Source: a phage. Taken from it: a DNA stretch of 44,954 nucleotides. The stretch's first letter is position 1, and each line of letters starts with the position of its first letter. Made by a program: the position numbers and the translations under genes. Shown here piece after piece: positions 2,944 through 44,406 of the stretch. The DNA is taken from sequence record OZ503098.1. One strand, written 5' to 3'. The notes beneath the pieces were generated by a model. The model had not been told where the DNA came from, did not search any database, and was given only the letters and a program-made list of their open reading frames with translations.

Positions 2944-3005
2944 TATGTTTTCCTTTTTAGCGGGGGCGGTATTGCCCCCGACGTGATTAAGATACTGCAA
3001 CCAAC

Positions 3006-3476
3006 CTATTGGTTGCAAGTGAATTTTGCAACGTTTATCGCATAAATTTTCGGGACCAGATCGCCGCACGCCCGACGAATTGCCGCGATGTTCTTCGGAC
3101 AGTCTTCAATGATGACCAGTTCCGACACGTCCGCATAGCAGACCATTTTGAACACGGCGCACGCCTTAAACTCTGGTGGCGGGGTGTCGTCCAGCATGTG
3201 GCGCATAAACAACCGGCCTGCCGGGAAGACCTCCAATTGCTTGGCGGTGGTGTCCCAACATTCTAGCTGCCGGTTGGTCAGATACGCGATCTCGAAGCCT
3301 TGCTCTTTGTACATGCGCAACAGCGGCAGCATATCCATGTTCAGGTCTTCGCGTACATGCGCTTTGTGCCACTTTGCCCAAAAGGTTGATTTCGTTTTTA
3401 TCCCCGGCACCAGGTCGGCACGCGCATCGCTTGAACCGTTAATAACGCCATCCAAATCGCAAATAAGTAATTTCAT
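3006..3476 (-). CDS. HAD-superfamily phosphatase/nucleotidase-like protein
   Basis: N-terminus MKLLICDLDGVI contains the HAD motif I (DxDG[TV]); 156 aa. Confidence 0.55.
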   Translation of the reverse strand: MKLLICDLDGVINGSSDARADLVPGIKTKSTFWAKWHKAHVREDLNMDMLPLLRMYKEQGFEIAYLTNRQLECWDTTAKQLEVFPAGRLFMRHMLDDTPPPEFKACAVFKMVCYADVSELVIIEDCPKNIAAIRRACGDLVPKIYAINVAKFTCNQ

Positions 3477-3646: not shown

Positions 3647-4156
3647 TCATCCACGACGCGGGGACTTCGATCGACGACTAAGATATTCATTTAATTCACC
3701 TTCGCTCATTATTTCAATTTGTGCGCTGCCGAGGGGCGGCGCTTCGTCAAAGATTATCAATTGCTGGCACTTGTTATTGCTCGGACCGACTTCGCCGGTG
3801 ACGGCGTGAATGAATCGGATACGCCAGTCCAGAAGAATTATCAGGTTTGCGGTCTTCCGGGCCAACCTCGCCCACTTCGTCGACGTATCCTGATTCAGTA
3901 GCATGACGGTCCGGCGTCCGTGCGCTGCGCACTCGACCCACGGCAGCGGATCGGAATACGGCGGGTTGCACCACTTCCACCCTTTCAACTCGGACCAGTC
4001 CACCTCAAGCGCGCTATGTTCTGCCGTGAAGTAACGCGGTAGCAGATGATTGGCATCGCTTGCCGCCATATCGTAACGGAATCGGTATTTCCGACGAAGC
4101 GGTTTAAATAAAGCTGGCGGCGTGCGCCAGCTATCTTTCTGCTCACTCTTCGTCAT
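3647..4156 (-). CDS. DNA N6-adenine methyltransferase (phage Dam family)
   Basis: KDSWRTPPALF near the N-terminus and the catalytic NPPY motif (WCNPPYSDP), as in phage Dam-type methyltransferases. Start placed at the in-frame ATG at 4156 (MTKSEQKDSW), overlapping the upstream gene by 14 nt. Confidence 0.7.
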   Translation of the reverse strand: MTKSEQKDSWRTPPALFKPLRRKYRFRYDMAASDANHLLPRYFTAEHSALEVDWSELKGWKWCNPPYSDPLPWVECAAHGRRTVMLLNQDTSTKWARLARKTANLIILLDWRIRFIHAVTGEVGPSNNKCQQLIIFDEAPPLGSAQIEIMSEGELNEYLSRRSKSPRRG

Positions 4157-4601
4157 TCTGCGGGTCCAGTGCGTACAGGGCCGTTTTCTTGTCTCGGGTA
4201 AGTACGCGCTGGATCCGCGCCATCTCATCCTTGCCAAGAGGTCGGCTATCGGAATAGTAGCTGCCGTTCGCACGCCACGCTATCAGCACCAGGTCTTTCC
4301 TGTCGATCTTAGACTGGCGACCCTTCGGTCGCACGTACTCCTCGGCGCGTTTACAATGCTCGCGCAGACTTTCGGCAGTGATGCGGTTTAGCGCCACGCT
4401 GGTGGTGTATCCTGTGCGCTGCATAATCCCCATCAATTCGAAAAGCAGTTCGAAGCGCTCCTCTAACTCCATGCGGCGCTTTTCTTCCGTTTCATAGCTT
4501 GACAGGTAGGTATCTGCCAGCGCGTTCGCACGTTCGGCCTGTTCTCGGGCTTCGAGGCATTGCGCGGCCCAGTATGCTTTTTCTTCTTGTAAAATTTTCA
4601 T
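4143..4601 (-). CDS. Hypothetical protein (152 aa), helical/coiled-coil rich
   Basis: ORF with ATG 4601 and GGAG RBS; directly downstream of a promoter-like element and a leader hairpin. Confidence 0.5.
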   Translation of the reverse strand: MKILQEEKAYWAAQCLEAREQAERANALADTYLSSYETEEKRRMELEERFELLFELMGIMQRTGYTTSVALNRITAESLREHCKRAEEYVRPKGRQSKIDRKDLVLIAWRANGSYYSDSRPLGKDEMARIQRVLTRDKKTALYALDPQNDEE

Positions 4602-4648
4602 CGTGTTGTCTCCAGGTATTAAAAAGGGCGTCCAAACCGGACACCCTT

Positions 4649-4677
4649 AATATAATGCAACCAATCTAATTATGCAA
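4649..4677 (-). promoter_or_regulatory. Sigma70-like promoter built from two direct ATTGGTTGCAT copies (TTGCAT, 17 bp spacer, TATATT); a GC hairpin (4626-4646) lies in the leader
   Basis: Minus-strand reading: ATTGGTTGCATaattagATTGGTTGCATTATATT; the first copy supplies the -35 and the -10 follows the second copy after a 17-nt spacer. Confidence 0.35.
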
Positions 4678-5005
4678 CCAATTTACGAATAAAATTTGGG
4701 TCGCGTGCAACGTCTACCAGATACAGGTTACTAATGCGGTTGCCGTAGTGCCCTGGTGTGCGCTGGCGGCACACAACGGCGAAGCCGGGAGGGATTGTAT
4801 TGCCAGTCTCGATAATCCACGCTACGCGCGCGCCAGATAGCGTCTTGCCGTTGCACTCGATGCGCGTGCCGCCATCGGCAGTGTTGAGGTTGCCAATCTT
4901 ACATCCGGTGGACTTCAGGCGAATGACGCCGGTCTTGCTGTCGTAGGAGAATAACTGGTTAGTCATTGCAACCGAAAAATCAATGGCCTCGAATGTAGTA
5001 TTCAT
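4670..5005 (-). CDS. HNH-like endonuclease (degenerate) / hypothetical protein
   Basis: 111 aa; FSYDSKTG...NGKTLSGARVAWIIETG...GHYGNRISNLYLV follows the layout of small free-standing phage HNH proteins; catalytic residues are not all canonical. Start overlaps the stop of the upstream gene. Confidence 0.4.
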   Translation of the reverse strand: MNTTFEAIDFSVAMTNQLFSYDSKTGVIRLKSTGCKIGNLNTADGGTRIECNGKTLSGARVAWIIETGNTIPPGFAVVCRQRTPGHYGNRISNLYLVDVARDPNFIRKLVA

Positions 5006-14769: not shown

Positions 14770-15033
14770 GGTATATCTCCGATTGGTTAAGTTTGGCGTC
14801 CGGGCGGTATGCCCGGTCGACGAGGGAGATATTAGATTGGTTGCAGAAGGGAGTCAACAACTAATTTCAAAAAAAAGCGCCGAGGCAAAATGCAACGGCG
14901 CTAACCAATAAGAGACAATGAGACGGGAATTATTATTACACGCGTGCGCGCCCGTTTCAATATTCCAAAGAAGTTGACACCCTACGGTTTTAGGTGTAGT
15001 TTCGTTGGTCATTAACCAACCGAGGACAGAGCA
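14770..15033. promoter_or_regulatory. Divergent early control region: leftward promoter (about 14932-14960, TTGAAA-17-AATAAT on minus), rightward promoter (about 14974-15002, TTGACA-17-TAGTTT), leader hairpins at 14800-14816 and 14867-14902
   Basis: Only place where the two strand blocks diverge; consensus TTGACA -35 on plus; back-to-back -35 elements 14 bp apart flanking palindromic ACGCGT/GCGCGC words; minus-strand hairpin AGCGCCG...CGGCGCU followed by U8. Confidence 0.5.
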
Positions 15034-17905: not shown

Positions 17906-18061
17906 AAAATCCGGGATTGCATAATACACGGCAACATGATGCAAATTGCGGTCGTCGGTGAACTAGGCAACCAATGCGAGTTGCAGAATGGTGGGTGAAA
18001 AATGCAGTTTGCAGTCACAGCAGATAGCGATCGACTTTTTCATACGCGTGATTAATATTGG

Positions 18062-18090
18062 TTGCACCCGCCCTGGCACCCTGCTATATT
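18062..18090 (+). promoter_or_regulatory. Sigma70-like promoter TTGCAC-17-TATATT embedded in two ATTGGTTGCAC motif copies, upstream of gene 18119
   Basis: -35 TTGCAC 18062-18067, 17-bp spacer, -10 TATATT 18085-18090; motif copies at 18057-18067 and 18088-18098. Confidence 0.45.
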
Positions 18091-18118
18091 GGTTGCACAC
18101 CAACATGAGGACTGAACA

Positions 18119-18412
18119 ATGAAAGCTTTAATCTGGAACTACACAATGGCGGTGGCAAAGCTGTACGAAGCGCGCCACCACAACGGCAACATACCAGAAG
18201 CCCAGCATGAGGCCGTCATGGCCTGGCATGCGATCATGAACGCGAGTTCGGACCAGGGGGCCCCCGAACCTCTGCGCATGGCTATCCAGGCCTACGCGCT
18301 TGCATTCGCCCGTGAGCGCCTGGCGTATCGCTTCGGTGTCGGCGAGACGGCAGTGACAAACGTCGCCCGGATTAAAGCCCAGCGCGAGCTATTCGCCCAG
18401 CTTGCGAAATAA
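18119..18412 (+). CDS. Hypothetical protein (97 aa)
   Basis: ATG with GAGGA RBS, directly downstream of the promoter above. Confidence 0.5.
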   Translation: MKALIWNYTMAVAKLYEARHHNGNIPEAQHEAVMAWHAIMNASSDQGAPEPLRMAIQAYALAFARERLAYRFGVGETAVTNVARIKAQRELFAQLAK

Positions 18413-18421
18413 GGGGCCAAA

Positions 18422-18691
18422 ATGGACCGCAGACGCGCTAAACGGCTTTCGTGGCATATTCCACTGCATTGCATACGAATATGGGCTAAGAATGCGAATG
18501 AGGGCGATTCTGTGTTCTGGTGCTATCGCGACGATGTGAAGCCACTAACGCAGACTCGCTACTTGCACCAGTTCGCCAGGGAGCATGGGTTAGCCATAAA
18601 AACGTCCTTGCAACCAATTGGCATTCGTATTACATTACGCCGGAAGCCCACCGTTGAGCGGGTAGGTAAACACTGGAGACTGAGCAAATGA
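18422..18691 (+). CDS. Hypothetical protein (89 aa)
   Basis: ATG with AAGGGG RBS. Confidence 0.5.
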   Translation: MDRRRAKRLSWHIPLHCIRIWAKNANEGDSVFWCYRDDVKPLTQTRYLHQFAREHGLAIKTSLQPIGIRITLRRKPTVERVGKHWRLSK

Positions 18692-21074: not shown

Positions 21075-21104
21075 TTGACTCGCAACCAACATAGGGGCCA
21101 TACT
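21075..21104 (+). promoter_or_regulatory. Promoter-like element TTGACT-18-CATACT overlapped by two (T)GCAACCAA(T) motif copies
   Basis: Motif copies sit in the spacer and at the start site, i.e. operator-like placement; precedes a strong GGAGGAG RBS. Confidence 0.35.
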
Positions 21105-21133
21105 GCAACCAATCAACTGGAGGAGTAATCAAG

Positions 21134-26017: not shown

Positions 26018-27104
26018 TCAATATATGGCGGATCGAATGATTCGCCGACACATCTTCACCCAGCGCCTGAGTAATGACCAGGCGCGGAGGGTGCTGGCTA
26101 TGTGGGAGAAGTTCCGGCCTACATTACTAGGAAAGCTGACTGAGTTACTTGATGGCAAATCGTCAATGCATAACAAGGCACTTTCCACTCTGTTAACGCA
26201 ACTCGACAAGACCGTCAAAACGGAACTGCGCACCGAGTTTAAGGCGCTGGCTGAAAGCCTTCAGGAGTTCGCCGACACCGAGGCTGATTATCTCGCCGAC
26301 ACATTAACGGCAGCGATCCAGCCCGCGGTCGCCGTACCGGCTGTTGAGGTGGTGGGTGTTGTGACCGGCGCGCAGATCGCGGCGACTGCAATGAAAAACC
26401 CGTTCCAGGGTAACACCATGATGCAGTGGCCCGATTCACTTTCCGAGTGGACCAGGACGCAGATCGGCAATCAGGTGCGCGCCGGATTCATCCAGGGCAA
26501 GCCGACGATGGAAATTATCGCGGATGTGAGGCGCGCGCTAGGCGGTCGAAGTGCGCAAGCAATCTCAAGCGTTGTTAAGTCCGCAGTCAACCACTATGCG
26601 GCGACCGCCCGCGAATTAATGGTGAAAGCTAATGACGATATTCTCGAAGGTCGCCAATGGTTATCTACATTGGACACGCATACTTCTCCCATGTGCCAGC
26701 TACGCGATCGCCTGTTTTATCCGGTTGATGTTACTCCCGATACGAAAGGGAAGCGAGGCGGAAAAGTGGTGGCGGGATCACAATATGGCGCCGGTCCGGG
26801 CAAGCTACATTATTGCTGCCGCTCGACGGAGACGTGGAAAGTCAAAGGTATGGAAGATTGGCCCAGTGGTAAGCGTCCGGCACTGAAGGCCGACGCAGGC
26901 AGATTGCTGAGTGAGCATGTCGACGCGCAGACTGATTTCTTCTCATGGGTGCAGCGCCAGCCGCGCCATATCCTGGAGGAATTATATGGAGTGCAACGCG
27001 CCGACCAGATTATGCGCGGCGTGAAAGTGCCGAAGATGTTCACCGATTCTGGCGAACTGATGTCTATTGCACAGCTTAAAAACCGGGGGTTATGGCGTGA
27101 TTAA
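26001..27104 (+). CDS. Head morphogenesis protein (Mu F-like / SPP1 gp7-like minor head protein)
   Basis: Follows the portal gene; LSTLDTHTSPMCQLRDRLFY matches the conserved D-x-R-T...C core of this family. Confidence 0.6.
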   Translation: MAKTINQYMADRMIRRHIFTQRLSNDQARRVLAMWEKFRPTLLGKLTELLDGKSSMHNKALSTLLTQLDKTVKTELRTEFKALAESLQEFADTEADYLADTLTAAIQPAVAVPAVEVVGVVTGAQIAATAMKNPFQGNTMMQWPDSLSEWTRTQIGNQVRAGFIQGKPTMEIIADVRRALGGRSAQAISSVVKSAVNHYAATARELMVKANDDILEGRQWLSTLDTHTSPMCQLRDRLFYPVDVTPDTKGKRGGKVVAGSQYGAGPGKLHYCCRSTETWKVKGMEDWPSGKRPALKADAGRLLSEHVDAQTDFFSWVQRQPRHILEELYGVQRADQIMRGVKVPKMFTDSGELMSIAQLKNRGLWRD

Positions 27105-27426
27105 ATACGCAGCGATTGGGCTGGTTATCGGTCTGGCGGTAGGATTCTGGCTAGGTGACTCCTATCGCGCTGGCGTAGTGGCGGAGGCGGCGCAAGAAGC
27201 CCAAGCCCAAGCCCAACGGCAGCAAACTAAAGTTGTTGAGCGCTCCGTGCAGGCCGAACAAGCCCGCGACGTAGAATACCGGACTATCACGAAAGAGGTT
27301 GTTAAATATGTTACGCGCCCTAACCGCCCTGATTGTAGTTTTGATGCTGAGCGCGTGCGGATCAAGCAACGTGCCGTTGATGCCGCTAACGGAGTCGGCA
27401 CTGCGACCGCCGTGCAAGTTCGATAG
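27097..27426 (+). CDS. Putative i-spanin (Rz-like): N-terminal TM segment plus Gln/Ala-rich coiled coil
   Basis: GTG start at 27097 with GGGGG RBS (the track's TTG start at 27067 is also possible); AAIGLVIGLAVGFWLG TM segment followed by AQEAQAQAQRQQTKVVERSVQAEQ; overlaps an embedded lipoprotein ORF. Confidence 0.45.
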   Translation: MIKYAAIGLVIGLAVGFWLGDSYRAGVVAEAAQEAQAQAQRQQTKVVERSVQAEQARDVEYRTITKEVVKYVTRPNRPDCSFDAERVRIKQRAVDAANGVGTATAVQVR

Positions 27427-27580
27427 CCCGTCCGCAGACCCCGACGAGGATTTGATGATTGACGTGAAAAATATGGAATGCGGGGCGAAGCTAAGGGCGC
27501 AGGTGCTGGAGTTGCAGCAAATAATTAAGGGCCGTAATGGCCCCCTTTTCGTTAGCGCGGAATACCGCAAATCTCGTTGA
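27308..27580 (+). CDS. Putative o-spanin (Rz1-like outer-membrane lipoprotein), overlapping the i-spanin gene in the +1 frame
   Basis: ATG 27308 with AAAGAGG RBS; signal peptide with lipobox MLRALTALIVVLMLSACGSS; Pro-rich mature part; 90 aa. Confidence 0.5.
   Translation: MLRALTALIVVLMLSACGSSNVPLMPLTESALRPPCKFDSPSADPDEDLMIDVKNMECGAKLRAQVLELQQIIKGRNGPLFVSAEYRKSR
27529..27551. terminator. Bidirectional hairpin at the convergence of the o-spanin gene and the minus-strand moron
   Basis: GGGCC-gtaat-GGCCC followed by CCTTTTCGTT on plus and by UUAAUUAUUU on minus. Confidence 0.4.
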
Positions 27581-28316
27581 GAGTTTTCACATCCAGCGCC
27601 ACCGCCGTGGATTTTGGCTTGTCCGGGTAAGGGATGAATTGCTCAACTTCAGGCCATGCCTTAATCAGCTTCTTGTCAGTATTGTGCAGGTCCAGCACAC
27701 CGGTAACGGTCAACTTGAACGCGTCATACTTAGCCCGCAACTCACGGCGGGCCTTGTCGTTACGGTCCAGGCGCTTACAGAAATCATGATCCGCCGGGAA
27801 ATCCGCACGGCAGTGTGGCTTATAGATCGGCAGCGCTTTCCCGTCCTCGTCCACTTCGCACACTGACGCGAGCATAACTTCTTCAAACCCCGGTACGATA
27901 TCGCCTAAATCGGGGGATAGCTTATTCATGTATTTATATTCCCAGCATCCGCGATGTACGCGGTATTGGCGACCGTCACCGCTCAAGGATAAGGTGCGAA
28001 CATTTCCGCCTGCGTTGATTTCGAAAGTGGCGTCGTAAACGCTGCCGATACCTTTCGGGCGGTCGGCGTTATAACGATATGTCGCCTTGTTGGTGTATAC
28101 ACAGACGCCGTACATCTGCGACGGGTCATCGCCGATTGCTTCAATGTGCGCGAGTAGCTCGGCGAACGTGCGAATGCCTTCCGGCATACAGTCCAGCGTA
28201 ATGGCATAAGCCAGGTCGCGCGAGTCCATCATGATTTGTTTGGCTTCGGTTGCGATTTCGTGGTCGCGCAGGATGTTAGCCAGAATCTGATTTTTAATGT
28301 CTTTAGTAAGTCTCAT
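27552..28316 (-). CDS. Opposite-strand moron: hypothetical protein (254 aa) of unknown function
   Basis: Only minus-strand gene inside the 15-43 kb plus-strand block; ATG 28316 with GAGGA RBS; own promoter-like element upstream and hairpin downstream; Cys/His-containing (HRGCWEYKY, KPHCRADFPADHDFCKR) but no motif I can name. Confidence 0.55.
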   Translation of the reverse strand: MRLTKDIKNQILANILRDHEIATEAKQIMMDSRDLAYAITLDCMPEGIRTFAELLAHIEAIGDDPSQMYGVCVYTNKATYRYNADRPKGIGSVYDATFEINAGGNVRTLSLSGDGRQYRVHRGCWEYKYMNKLSPDLGDIVPGFEEVMLASVCEVDEDGKALPIYKPHCRADFPADHDFCKRLDRNDKARRELRAKYDAFKLTVTGVLDLHNTDKKLIKAWPEVEQFIPYPDKPKSTAVALDVKTLNEICGIPR

Positions 28317-28345
28317 TTTTGTGTCCTCGTTGTTGGTGTGCAACC

Positions 28346-28375
28346 AATATATTGCAACCAATACCCGGATTGCAA
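28346..28375 (-). promoter_or_regulatory. Promoter for the moron: TTGCAA-18-TATATT on the minus strand, overlapping two ATTGGTTGCA copies
   Basis: Minus-strand reading: TTGCAAtccgggtATTGGTTGCAaTATATTGGTTGCAC; same architecture as the 18062-18090 promoter. Confidence 0.4.
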
Positions 28376-28382
28376 GCGAATT

Positions 28383-28410
28383 TTGCGATTATTTTTATCA
28401 CTGATAATAT
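28383..28410 (+). promoter_or_regulatory. Promoter-like element TTGCGA-16-TGaTAATAT upstream of the scaffold gene
   Basis: Extended -10-like TGATAATAT at 28402-28410; divergent from the moron promoter. Confidence 0.3.
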
Positions 28411-28464
28411 TAAGGCGTGAAGTCGAGCGGGTGGCCTGCTCTGCCACAATCCCAGGGGGATAGC

Positions 28465-29166
28465 ATGAAACTTACTAAAGCAGAATATGACGCGTTGCCG
28501 GAAGGTATGAAGGCGCTTTTTGTTGCCGATGGTGACGGGTATAAATCAACGTTCATGACCGCCGAAGAAGTACAGGCGGAGATTAAGGGTCTGAAAGACA
28601 ATAACGCGAAGCTGGTTAGCGAGAAGAAAGCAGAAGCCGAACGTCGCGCCGAAGCCGAGCGCCTTGCGAAAGAGAAAGAGGAAGCCGCCGCGCGCAAAAA
28701 TGGCGACCTCGAAGCGATCGACAAGTCCTGGAAAGATAAGTTTGCGAAACACGAAGCAGACACATCGGGAAAAATCGAAGCCTACCGCAAGCAGATCCAC
28801 GACCTAACCATCGGCAGCGCTGCCAAAGATTTGGCCTCGAAGCTGTTCGGTAAGAATGCGGGCATCATGCAACGCCACGTTATGGACCGCCTGACGCTGG
28901 AAGACGGCGAAGACGGCAGCTTGAAGGTGCGTGTCTTGCAGGATGGCAAACCATCCGCGCTGACTATGGAAGAGCTTGAAAAAGAGTTCCGTAATAACGC
29001 CGATTTTGCATCCGTCCTGGCAGGCACGCCAGCCGGTGGTGCGCCGAGCAAACCGACGCAGGTCGTCGAAGATGTGAAGTCTAAAATCACTATGGGCCAC
29101 AGCTTTGGCATCACCGACCTGACGAAACAGGCGGGTGAAATCATCGCTAAAATGGGCGACGAGTAA
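28465..29166 (+). CDS. Putative scaffolding protein
   Basis: ATG 28465 with AGGGGGA RBS; Lys/Glu/Ala-rich predicted coiled coil (AEAERRAEAERLAKEKEEAAARK); immediately upstream of the major capsid gene. Confidence 0.5.
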   Translation: MKLTKAEYDALPEGMKALFVADGDGYKSTFMTAEEVQAEIKGLKDNNAKLVSEKKAEAERRAEAERLAKEKEEAAARKNGDLEAIDKSWKDKFAKHEADTSGKIEAYRKQIHDLTIGSAAKDLASKLFGKNAGIMQRHVMDRLTLEDGEDGSLKVRVLQDGKPSALTMEELEKEFRNNADFASVLAGTPAGGAPSKPTQVVEDVKSKITMGHSFGITDLTKQAGEIIAKMGDE

Positions 29167-29171
29167 GCAAA

Positions 29172-29196
29172 TTGCCCGCGAAAGCGGGCAATTTTG
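29172..29196 (+). terminator. Hairpin plus T-run after the scaffold gene
   Basis: TTGCCCGC-gaaa-GCGGGCAA followed by TTTT. Confidence 0.5.
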
Positions 29197-29263
29197 CGAG
29201 CGCGTAAATCTAAGGTAACATTAACGGTACTGGGCGAATGCTCACAACTCAAAGGATTCCGAT

Positions 29264-30364
29264 ATGTCTTTAACAGTGTTCCAGCGTAAACTCGTCACCG
29301 CGGTTACGCAAATGATCCCCGATAACCTGAACGTGTTCAACGCTGCCGCTAACGGTGCTGTTGTTCTCGGCACGGGTGAAGTGCTGAAGGATGTTGTAGA
29401 AAAAATGTCCGTAGGCTTGATCGCCAACCTCGTTACCGACCGTAACGCCTATGCCCCTGTCGGTACTCCGGCGACCGCAAAAGTGCTGGCGCGTATGCTG
29501 ACCAACTCCGTCAACCTGTCCGCGAAAGTGGGTCCGGTAGCAATCACTAAGGCTATGATGGCTAAAATCGAAACCAACGTTAACAGCGTTGCGGCTGAGA
29601 TTGCGGCACAGGCTACTCAAGCGATTATGCTGCATTACCTGAAGGCTGGCATCGGCGCAAGTAAAGCGGCGATCGAGAGCAACGCAGCGGCAAAATACAC
29701 CCAACCGGCGCGCGTTGACGGCGTTGGCGGTCGTACCTTCCCGACCCTGGCAGACTTCCCGCTGGCGGCTTCTAAGTTCGGCGATCAGGCGTCTTTGATT
29801 AAGTCCTGGTTTATGGACGGCGTCACCTGGGCAAACTTCATTGCGTACCAGGCACTCCCTTCCGCTGAACAGGTATTCGCAATTGGCGATCTCCAGGTAA
29901 TGGGTGATGGCCTGGGCCGTCGCTTCATTATCTCCGATGCCGCTGCCGATGCTATGGGCACGGGTAACATGCTGGGTCTGGTCCCTGGCGCGGTTGCAGT
30001 TACCACCAACGGTCTTGATATGCTGGCGCAGGAGAAAGGCGGTAACGAGAACATCGAACGTTGGTGGCAGGGCGAGTTCGACTTCAACGTGGCGGTTAAA
30101 GGCTATCGTCTGAAGGCGTCCGCACGTACTACGGTCGAAGGTGTTCGCTCGTTCAAACTGTCCGACATCACCACTTCCGCTAACTGGGAACTGGATCAGG
30201 GCCAGGTAGACAACGCACCGGCAACCGTTCAGGATGTTGGCGCTGTTGGTGACGGCGATACTAAAGGCCGTCGTAAGACCCCGGCCGCACAGGAAGTGCC
30301 GACCCGTCACATCAAGGAAACGGCAGGCGTACTGGTTACGCTTACCCCGACCAAAGCGTCCTGA
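29264..30364 (+). CDS. Major capsid protein
   Basis: 366-aa ORF after the scaffold gene, AAAGGA RBS, followed by a strong terminator; assignment by position, size and composition. Confidence 0.6.
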   Translation: MSLTVFQRKLVTAVTQMIPDNLNVFNAAANGAVVLGTGEVLKDVVEKMSVGLIANLVTDRNAYAPVGTPATAKVLARMLTNSVNLSAKVGPVAITKAMMAKIETNVNSVAAEIAAQATQAIMLHYLKAGIGASKAAIESNAAAKYTQPARVDGVGGRTFPTLADFPLAASKFGDQASLIKSWFMDGVTWANFIAYQALPSAEQVFAIGDLQVMGDGLGRRFIISDAAADAMGTGNMLGLVPGAVAVTTNGLDMLAQEKGGNENIERWWQGEFDFNVAVKGYRLKASARTTVEGVRSFKLSDITTSANWELDQGQVDNAPATVQDVGAVGDGDTKGRRKTPAAQEVPTRHIKETAGVLVTLTPTKAS

Positions 30365-44356: not shown

Positions 44357-44385
44357 AGTATTACACCGCTCAATCAAGAATGCAA
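44357..44385 (-). promoter_or_regulatory. Promoter for the lipoprotein cassette: TTGCAT-17-TGtAATACT on minus, with -35 inside an ATTGGTTGCA motif
   Basis: Plus-strand TGCAACCAAT at 44381-44390; minus-strand reading ATTGGTTGCATtcttgattgagcggTGtAATACT. Confidence 0.4.
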
Positions 44386-44406
44386 CCAATTTAAGAGGAT
44401 TTAGCT

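Follow-up and report, generated by a model that had tools for sequence, protein, structure and literature searches.

Dhillonvirus is a genus of small virulent siphophages of Escherichia coli in which the gene nmad5 is dispensable and has a genetic link to host defence through escape from Tmn. Tmn-escape mutants of the Dhillonviruses SM_A8 and SM_S22 were found to share one nmad5 substitution (Yamashita et al. 2025, Commun Biol, PMC11846954). The substitution is K216E in SM_A8 and, at the equivalent residue, K296E in the N-extended annotation of SM_S22. Reversion of the mutation brought Tmn sensitivity back, and its introduction into a sensitive phage gave escape. An nmad5 deletion phage was viable and still blocked by Tmn, cloning of the gene failed, which the authors attributed to apparent toxicity, and Nmad5 was interpreted as a DNA- or nucleotide-modifying protein (PMC11846954). 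We analyzed a phage DNA of 44,954 nucleotides (nt), sequence record OZ503098.1, called the window below, which carries an nmad5 gene on its minus strand at 27552..28316. The phenotypes of escape, viability, and toxicity come from SM_A8 and SM_S22 and not from the window phage. The gene and its link to Tmn escape were already known; what is added here is its promoter class, the selection acting on it, the predicted fold, the contexts of the family, and a doubt about the modification label.

The closest comparison outside the family is RIIB of phage T2. Tmn is a membrane-anchored decamer whose cytosolic arms bind T2 RIIB directly, and a single RIIB residue decides Tmn activation without abolishing binding (PMC13001434, preprint 2026). 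RIIB is, like Nmad5, a phage protein in which one substitution abolishes Tmn defence. It is an early-to-middle protein, as the nmad5 product also appears to be from its promoter. The two proteins have no sequence or fold similarity, RIIB being absent among the 50 best of 64 matches in the BFVD structure database, and the two studies used different Tmn alleles. The explanation that we find fairly probable as a whole is that nmad5 is an accessory unit with early or middle expression, that its product binds a partner and is not an enzyme, that it has no role in hypermodification, and that K216E would turn it into a decoy for Tmn.

Identity of the gene and its escape residue

The coding sequence at 27552..28316 (minus strand, stop included) starts with ATG and encodes 254 amino acids (aa). 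In Pfam, its product belongs to PF18757 Nmad5 ("nucleotide modification associated domain 5"): the match spans all 206 profile positions (1-206) with E=1.1e-58 and scores 199.1 bits, the cut-off being 27. A second match was to PHROG 1965, a family without assigned function. Searches of NCBIfam and PADLOC with the protein gave no family, and a search of Rfam with 26500..29500 gave no RNA family. SM_A8 Nmad5, also of 254 aa and encoded at the same junction, is 89% identical to the window protein, and the window gene is orthologous to and syntenic with SM_A8 CDS7. The ratio of nonsynonymous to synonymous substitution rates (dN/dS) of nmad5 against four relatives was 0.03-0.18, compared with 0.05-0.08 for the capsid gene. 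Given this ratio and a Pfam score far above the cut-off, the minus-strand gene is real, and it is the already described Dhillonvirus nmad5. The original prediction, which was made from the letters of the DNA, had placed a 254-aa gene between the head-morphogenesis and spanin genes and the scaffold gene, and had delimited it correctly. It had also stated that the product holds no motif that could be named, which is overturned by the full-length Pfam match and by an orthologue that has already been studied.

A longer open reading frame (ORF) of 269 aa occupies 27552..28361 on the minus strand, with a TTG start and the ATG at 28316 as an internal codon, and is the version annotated in Shigella phage StarDew (gp7). 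This version was rejected since its start falls inside the promoter. A Shine-Dalgarno sequence, GAGGA, lies at 28324..28328 (minus strand), 7 nt 5' of the ATG, and is conserved in StarDew, SM_S24, and Teewinot. The N-terminus M-R-L-T is common to homologues of all phage groups. The length of 254 aa is thus the right one, because the homologues start at M-R-L-T, GAGGA precedes the ATG, and the TTG sits within the promoter.

The alignment with SM_A8 is gapless, so that K216 of the window protein is the SM_A8 escape residue. Its codon, computed from the coding sequence start at 28316, is 27669..27671 (minus strand). The lysine stands in the context HNTDKKLIKAW and directly precedes the invariant L217; it is part of TTxKLxxAWPE, the motif with the highest conservation in the family. 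Of 67 family members, 53 (79%) have K or R here. The window locus is like that of SM_A8 and SM_S22 in its junction, its promoter, and the kept K216. It differs from SM_A8 and most relatives in having no small ORF between the promoter and nmad5. In phage therapy, it is relevant that a single step at the K216 codon is known to give Tmn escape and that the window phage has the sensitive allele.

Promoter class and terminator

The original prediction had given nmad5 a promoter and a downstream hairpin of its own, and both were present. The promoter, TTGCAA-18-TATATT, is of sigma-70 type and lies at 28346..28375 on the minus strand (read from 28375 to 28346). It was the only such hit of a promoter scan in 26500..29500. 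It was compared in eight Dhillonviruses (the window, StarDew, JLBYU60, Zumzum, SM_A8, SM_A2, SM_S24, and Teewinot). All eight conserve the -35 hexamer (TTGCAA or TTGCAT), a copy of TTGGTTGCA in the spacer, the -10 hexamer TATATT, and GGTTGCACACCAACA downstream, while the other spacer bases vary. It is on conservation, and not on scan statistics, that the significance of the promoter and the hairpin rests.

There are two direct TTGGTTGCA copies at the nmad5 promoter (minus strand). The first, at 28353..28361, is in the spacer, and the second, at 28339..28347, overlaps the -10 hexamer and the start region. The region 28331..28361 (minus strand), which holds both copies and a palindrome TTGGT-TGCAC-ACCAA at the start region, is presumed to be an operator. 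The window contains 12 exact copies of TTGGTTGCA against 0.3 expected from base composition, and 27 sites with one mismatch against 12 in shuffled sequences. The sites lie at 2996-3017, 4649-4681, 14837-14845, 18050-18137, 18609-18617, 21081-21112, 28331-28375, and 44381-44389, and the copies are syntenic in Zumzum and SM_A2. They are intergenic, belong to the nonstructural half of the genome, and are often paired or palindromic, as in the arrangement TGCAACCAA-TAGG-TTGGTTGCA at 2996-3017 and the promoter-like pairs at 4649..4677 and 18050..18137. The structural half has exact copies in two places only: the pair at the nmad5 promoter and, towards the far end of the window, one site at 44381.

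The TTGGTTGCA copies are embedded in sigma-70-like promoters of the type TTGCAx-N17/18-TATATT. The -10 and downstream element of the nmad5 promoter recurs on the plus strand at 18050..18137. There, the promoter at 18062..18090 has TATATTGGTTGCACACCAACA in common with that of nmad5, and in both cases a GAGGAC ribosome-binding site follows within three bases. TTGGTTGCA is a phage-specific motif that looks like the operator of a phage regulator and would mark a class of early or middle promoters. As the nmad5 promoter has the TTGGTTGCA architecture of promoters in the replication and early half, nmad5 probably belongs to the same regulatory class as the early and middle genes and would be expressed with these, by host RNA polymerase and under the control of a phage regulator, not with the late head genes.

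The hairpin, GGGCC-GTAAT-GGCCC, is GC-rich and lies at 27529..27543 (element 27527..27545), and it scores as terminator-like on both strands. Its stability is ordinary (-15.1 kcal/mol, z = -1.7, for a folded 52-nt stretch of the minus strand). It is best read as a candidate bidirectional terminator common to the converging spanin and nmad5 transcripts, because its T-tract is better on the plus strand. With a terminator-like hairpin behind the spanin genes, late head transcription must either restart before the scaffold gene or run antisense through nmad5. An opposite-strand unit that can be transcribed independently, as had been proposed, is thus supported at the level of sequence by the conserved promoter and the hairpin.

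Predicted fold, family contexts, and function of Nmad5

An alignment of 67 Nmad5 sequences was compiled for the family. In these, G104, L217, W221, L246, and N247 are invariant, mostly structural residues, and T213, P222, E223, P229, G251, and P253 are conserved in at least 90%. The window protein has the family-wide N-terminal R-L-T, the GG turn, and the C-terminal TTxKLxxAWPE and LNxxCG[IL]P. The AlphaFold2 model made with this alignment is confident (pLDDT 87.8, pTM 0.81). It consists of three N-terminal helices (residues 5-62), a beta-rich insert (79-173) that is far shorter in family members of about 190-210 aa, a long helix (178-209), two short helices with the conserved motif (214-227), a linker of low confidence (about 230-242), and a short C-terminal helix with the invariant L246 and N247 (243-250). 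In this model, Nmad5 resembles a helical bundle into which a variable beta-rich segment is inserted.

Nothing under E=2 was found when the model was searched against the PDB with Foldseek, and the 50 best of the 64 BFVD matches were solely other Nmad5 proteins without assigned function. PDB sequence searches with the single protein and with the 67-sequence profile gave nothing meaningful, the best match being to apolipoprotein helices (E=0.064). The Cys- and His-containing segments of the original prediction do exist and form no motif: C72, C124, and C169 are each found in at most 4% of sequences and only H177, in a loose ADH motif, reaches a moderate 54%. A Cys/His metal site was rejected on this conservation. 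The sequence and fold searches suggest no known catalytic or metal-binding site. Nmad5 is probably not an enzyme, because the confident model has no relatives in the PDB, the invariant residues are mostly structural, and the Cys and His residues are not conserved.

The name of the family bears on this question, and so do its other carriers. In the Pseudomonas M6-like Yuavirus phages (PAC5, SN1) and in Bordetella Vojvodinavirus, nmad5 lies between the genes of aGPT-Pplase1 and the dU hydroxymethylase, in a thymidine hypermodification cluster. PAC5 Nmad5 is of the same Pfam family (E=1e-32) and has the C-terminal motif in common with the window protein; the Yuavirus and Vojvodinavirus proteins, of about 186 aa, are without most of the beta-rich insert. 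Five M6-type enzymes (aGPT-Pplase1, 5-hmU DNA kinase, the radical S-adenosylmethionine enzyme, the pyridoxal phosphate enzyme, and the dU hydroxymethylase) were used as tblastn queries. The window, the complete Zumzum genome, and 80 lambdoid loci gave no match to any of them; only the Bordetella CN1 locus did. The neighbourhood of modification genes on which the family name is based, going by the Pfam title and the papers that cite the origin of the name, was thus not found in the window with these five queries.

If Nmad5 were nevertheless an enzyme that modifies DNA or nucleotides, Dhillonvirus DNA would carry an Nmad5-dependent modification that is sensed by Tmn or altered by K216E. This is the reading of Yamashita et al. 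(PMC11846954), and it agrees with the family name, with the annotation "putative nucleotide modification protein" by PGAP, with the conserved adjacency to aGPT-Pplase1 and the dU hydroxymethylase in M6-like phages, and with a few conserved polar residues (T213, E223, and N247). We find it quite unlikely. The window genome and the lambdoid carriers have no further hypermodification gene that tblastn could detect, the model has no known enzyme fold, and the protein has no nucleotide- or metal-binding signature. For M6, the modification steps have been rebuilt in lysates and from purified enzymes with gp51-gp55 only, and the paper in question never mentions Nmad5. Dhillonviruses are also reported to be more sensitive to type I and type II restriction-modification than Nonagvirus and Seuratvirus, in which deoxyguanosine carries a 7-deazaguanine modification. 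Finally, the deletion of nmad5 leaves Tmn sensing intact (PMC11846954), which makes it unlikely that Tmn senses a modification made by Nmad5. We infer that Dhillonvirus Nmad5 takes no part in base hypermodification. The label "DNA modification enzyme" is doubtful for this phage, and a binding protein engaged by Tmn is more likely. In annotation, the "hypothetical protein" of most Dhillonvirus records can be renamed Nmad5, with the modification label treated as unproven.

The family is common, with members in Dhillonvirus, M6-like phages, Vibrio phages, and lambdoid prophages, and its confident predicted fold has no solved relative. In the temperate lambdoid phages (mEp235, HK244, and Stx1/Stx2 phages), the protein has 207 aa (Pfam E=4e-72) and is about 35% identical to the window protein, over the C-terminal third only. 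The lambdoid gene, like that of the window, stands alone as an accessory gene, and its surroundings hold no modification genes. It is transcribed as part of the PL early operon, directly behind N, whereas nmad5 of the window has its own unit. In mEp235 (positions 3695-4318 of locus L004), it comes after N and a small gene marked as a transcriptional regulator, with kil/erf/ssb/abc2 downstream of it. Of 5426 complete E. coli genomes, 211 (about 4%) carry the lambdoid allele, as do at least 260 IMG/VR contigs. The context survey on viral contigs comprised the 80 best IMG/VR loci, all with near-identical lambdoid alleles, and a scan of genome contigs gave two loci. No functional study of the lambdoid 207-aa allele was found in the literature. 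Elsewhere, nmad5 is just upstream of the holin and endolysin genes in Hungariovirus C130_2 and Serratia phage Smarc2, and among small ORFs of unassigned function in Vibrio phages. No neighbour gene was conserved across the loci of Dhillonvirus, C130_2, Smarc2, mEp235, Vibrio D267, and PAC5.

The lambdoid position, among the accessory genes that the PL operon has between N and kil/erf/abc2, would suit a dedicated inhibitor for anti-defence or host takeover. Its target would be a conserved factor of the host, for example a nuclease, a protein of repair or replication, or a sensor of defence other than Tmn. This is the main alternative to our explanation. Inhibition of a host factor would explain the toxicity to which the failed cloning in E. 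coli was attributed (PMC11846954), and the alternative is in keeping with the dispensability of nmad5 on laboratory hosts and with the conserved, docking-like C-terminal segment. At the nucleotide level the gene evolves faster than the capsid gene, with identities to relatives of 83-94% for nmad5 and 90-99% for the capsid gene. The low dN/dS, however, gives no signs of an arms race. The inhibitor has no known target, the protein matched no PADLOC or anti-defence family, and no host has been reported on which wild-type nmad5 is advantageous. A DNA-mimic role was rejected on charge, as the protein (isoelectric point 6.1) is too little acidic. We regard this alternative as unlikely.

The explanation that we favour, a partner-binding protein that is not an enzyme, can be put as a mechanism by analogy with RIIB. 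The conserved C-terminal segment (TTxKLxxAWPE ... LNxxCG[IL]P), which is partly flexible in the model, would probably dock on a partner conserved across Proteobacteria, either a protein or DNA. Tmn may engage two or more Dhillonvirus proteins through its cytosolic arms, Nmad5 being one of these. With K216E, Nmad5 would become a nonactivating binder that blocks Tmn, and the loss of Nmad5 would leave the other Tmn trigger in place. Such a decoy would explain escape by a point mutant but not by a deletion, and as a hypothesis it offers the simplest account of the genetics of nmad5. If this is true, it would be a naturally evolvable route from an immune trigger to an immune inhibitor. Identification of the partner of Nmad5 would explain both the toxicity and the discrepancy between point mutant and deletion.

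Several points weigh against this explanation. Binding between Nmad5 and Tmn has not been reported, and the decoy role of K216E is one that we infer. Nonsense mutations in T2 RIIB allow escape from Tmn, which deletion of nmad5 does not, and the wild-type gene has no known benefit to the phage. The timing of nmad5 is deduced solely from the promoter sequence, and one promoter hit is not above the number in shuffled sequences (mean 2.0). A catalytic role could fall to the conserved polar residues T213, E223, and N247, and the lack of a known fold may leave room for an enzyme of new fold. The adjacency to aGPT-Pplase1 and the dU hydroxymethylase is conserved in Yuavirus and Vojvodinavirus, where a link to modified DNA is possible. 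A bolder version, which we advance tentatively, is that Nmad5 is misnamed altogether: a widespread and presumably early phage protein of new fold, with a partner-binding C-terminal segment (TTxKLxxAWPE/LNxxCGLP), would be read directly by the Tmn arms, K216E being the nonactivating decoy.

Conservation at the junction and genome layout

The original prediction had called the gene a moron and had asked whether relatives carry a gene at this junction. The capsid gene served to define a set of 159 Dhillonvirus records, of which 148 encode 80% or more of the Nmad5 protein. Promoter and hairpin agree with the moron proposal; the ordinary G+C content does not, since the deviant base composition expected of a moron was not found (52.7% for nmad5 and 54.4% for the window), and the full-length presence in nearly all records gives no clear support to a moron in the strict sense. 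The exceptions that were looked at are truncations or remnants and not empty sites. In SM_S24 (positions 2020-2574 of locus L011), the gene codes for 184 aa only, the conserved C-terminal third with K216 being absent. Teewinot (positions 3001-3174 of locus L010) has only a short remnant, and an over-long ORF of 348 aa is annotated across the scaffold region. Both are natural loss-of-function states of nmad5. In jat, CS16, and a few other records, partial matches reach the end of the record. Purifying selection maintains nmad5, yet it can be lost.

What varies at the junction is a different ORF. Most Dhillonviruses have one more ORF here, of 104-122 aa, which separates nmad5 from the promoter (4359-4727 of locus L001, minus strand; 1146-1460 of locus L012, plus strand), followed by a small hairpin of its own. 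It is cleanly missing from the window, StarDew, SM_S24, and Teewinot, and the 122-aa version of the relatives had no Pfam match. This small upstream ORF, and not nmad5, is the variable moron-like element of the junction.

The window from 27000 to 29200 is 96.6% identical to StarDew and matches 159 records, nearly all from Dhillonvirus. The window is approximately collinear with the complete genome of phage Zumzum, in opposite orientation, and its layout was derived from the Zumzum annotation. Replication and early genes are on the minus strand at about 1.7-14.9 kb; a helicase-primase gene, small ORFs, and holin and endolysin genes follow on the plus strand at 15-22 kb; and the structural block runs on the plus strand from 22.5 kb to the end of the window. 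nmad5 splits this plus-strand block, with a head-morphogenesis gene and the overlapping Rz/Rz1 spanin pair (27067..27580, plus strand) on one side and the scaffold gene (28417..29166, plus strand) and the major capsid gene on the other.

This position is all that speaks for reading nmad5 as a head-module gene, structural or for assembly, that has been inverted, an idea that we consider extremely improbable. The gene can be deleted (PMC11846954) and is naturally truncated, its homologues lie in lambdoid early operons and elsewhere beside replication or lysis genes, and its promoter is of the nonstructural class. Homology to structural or assembly proteins, which would have spoken against an accessory gene, was looked for by profile and structure searches (Pfam, PHROG, Foldseek, and BFVD), and no such family or fold was matched. 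The accessory, nonstructural function of the original prediction is instead borne out by the viable deletion, the natural truncations, and the genetic link to Tmn defence.

In the 100-nt spacer before the scaffold gene, a weak divergent promoter candidate, TTGCGA-16-TAATAT, was noted at 28376-28416 on the plus strand. Counted by eye, it has 8 of 12 consensus positions and is under the scan threshold of 9/12.

The gene of the o-spanin, an Rz1-like lipoprotein (27308-27580, plus strand), reads GGG near 27529, just before its stop, where StarDew and JLBYU60 read GGGG. The one-G difference may be a real variant or a homopolymer sequencing error. Owing to the missing G, the protein ends in ...IIKGRNGPLFVSAEYRKSR in the window and in ...IIKGP in StarDew and JLBYU60. 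With one G fewer, the ORF and the 3' end of nmad5 have 29 nt in common, and the stem of the shared terminator is shorter by one base pair.

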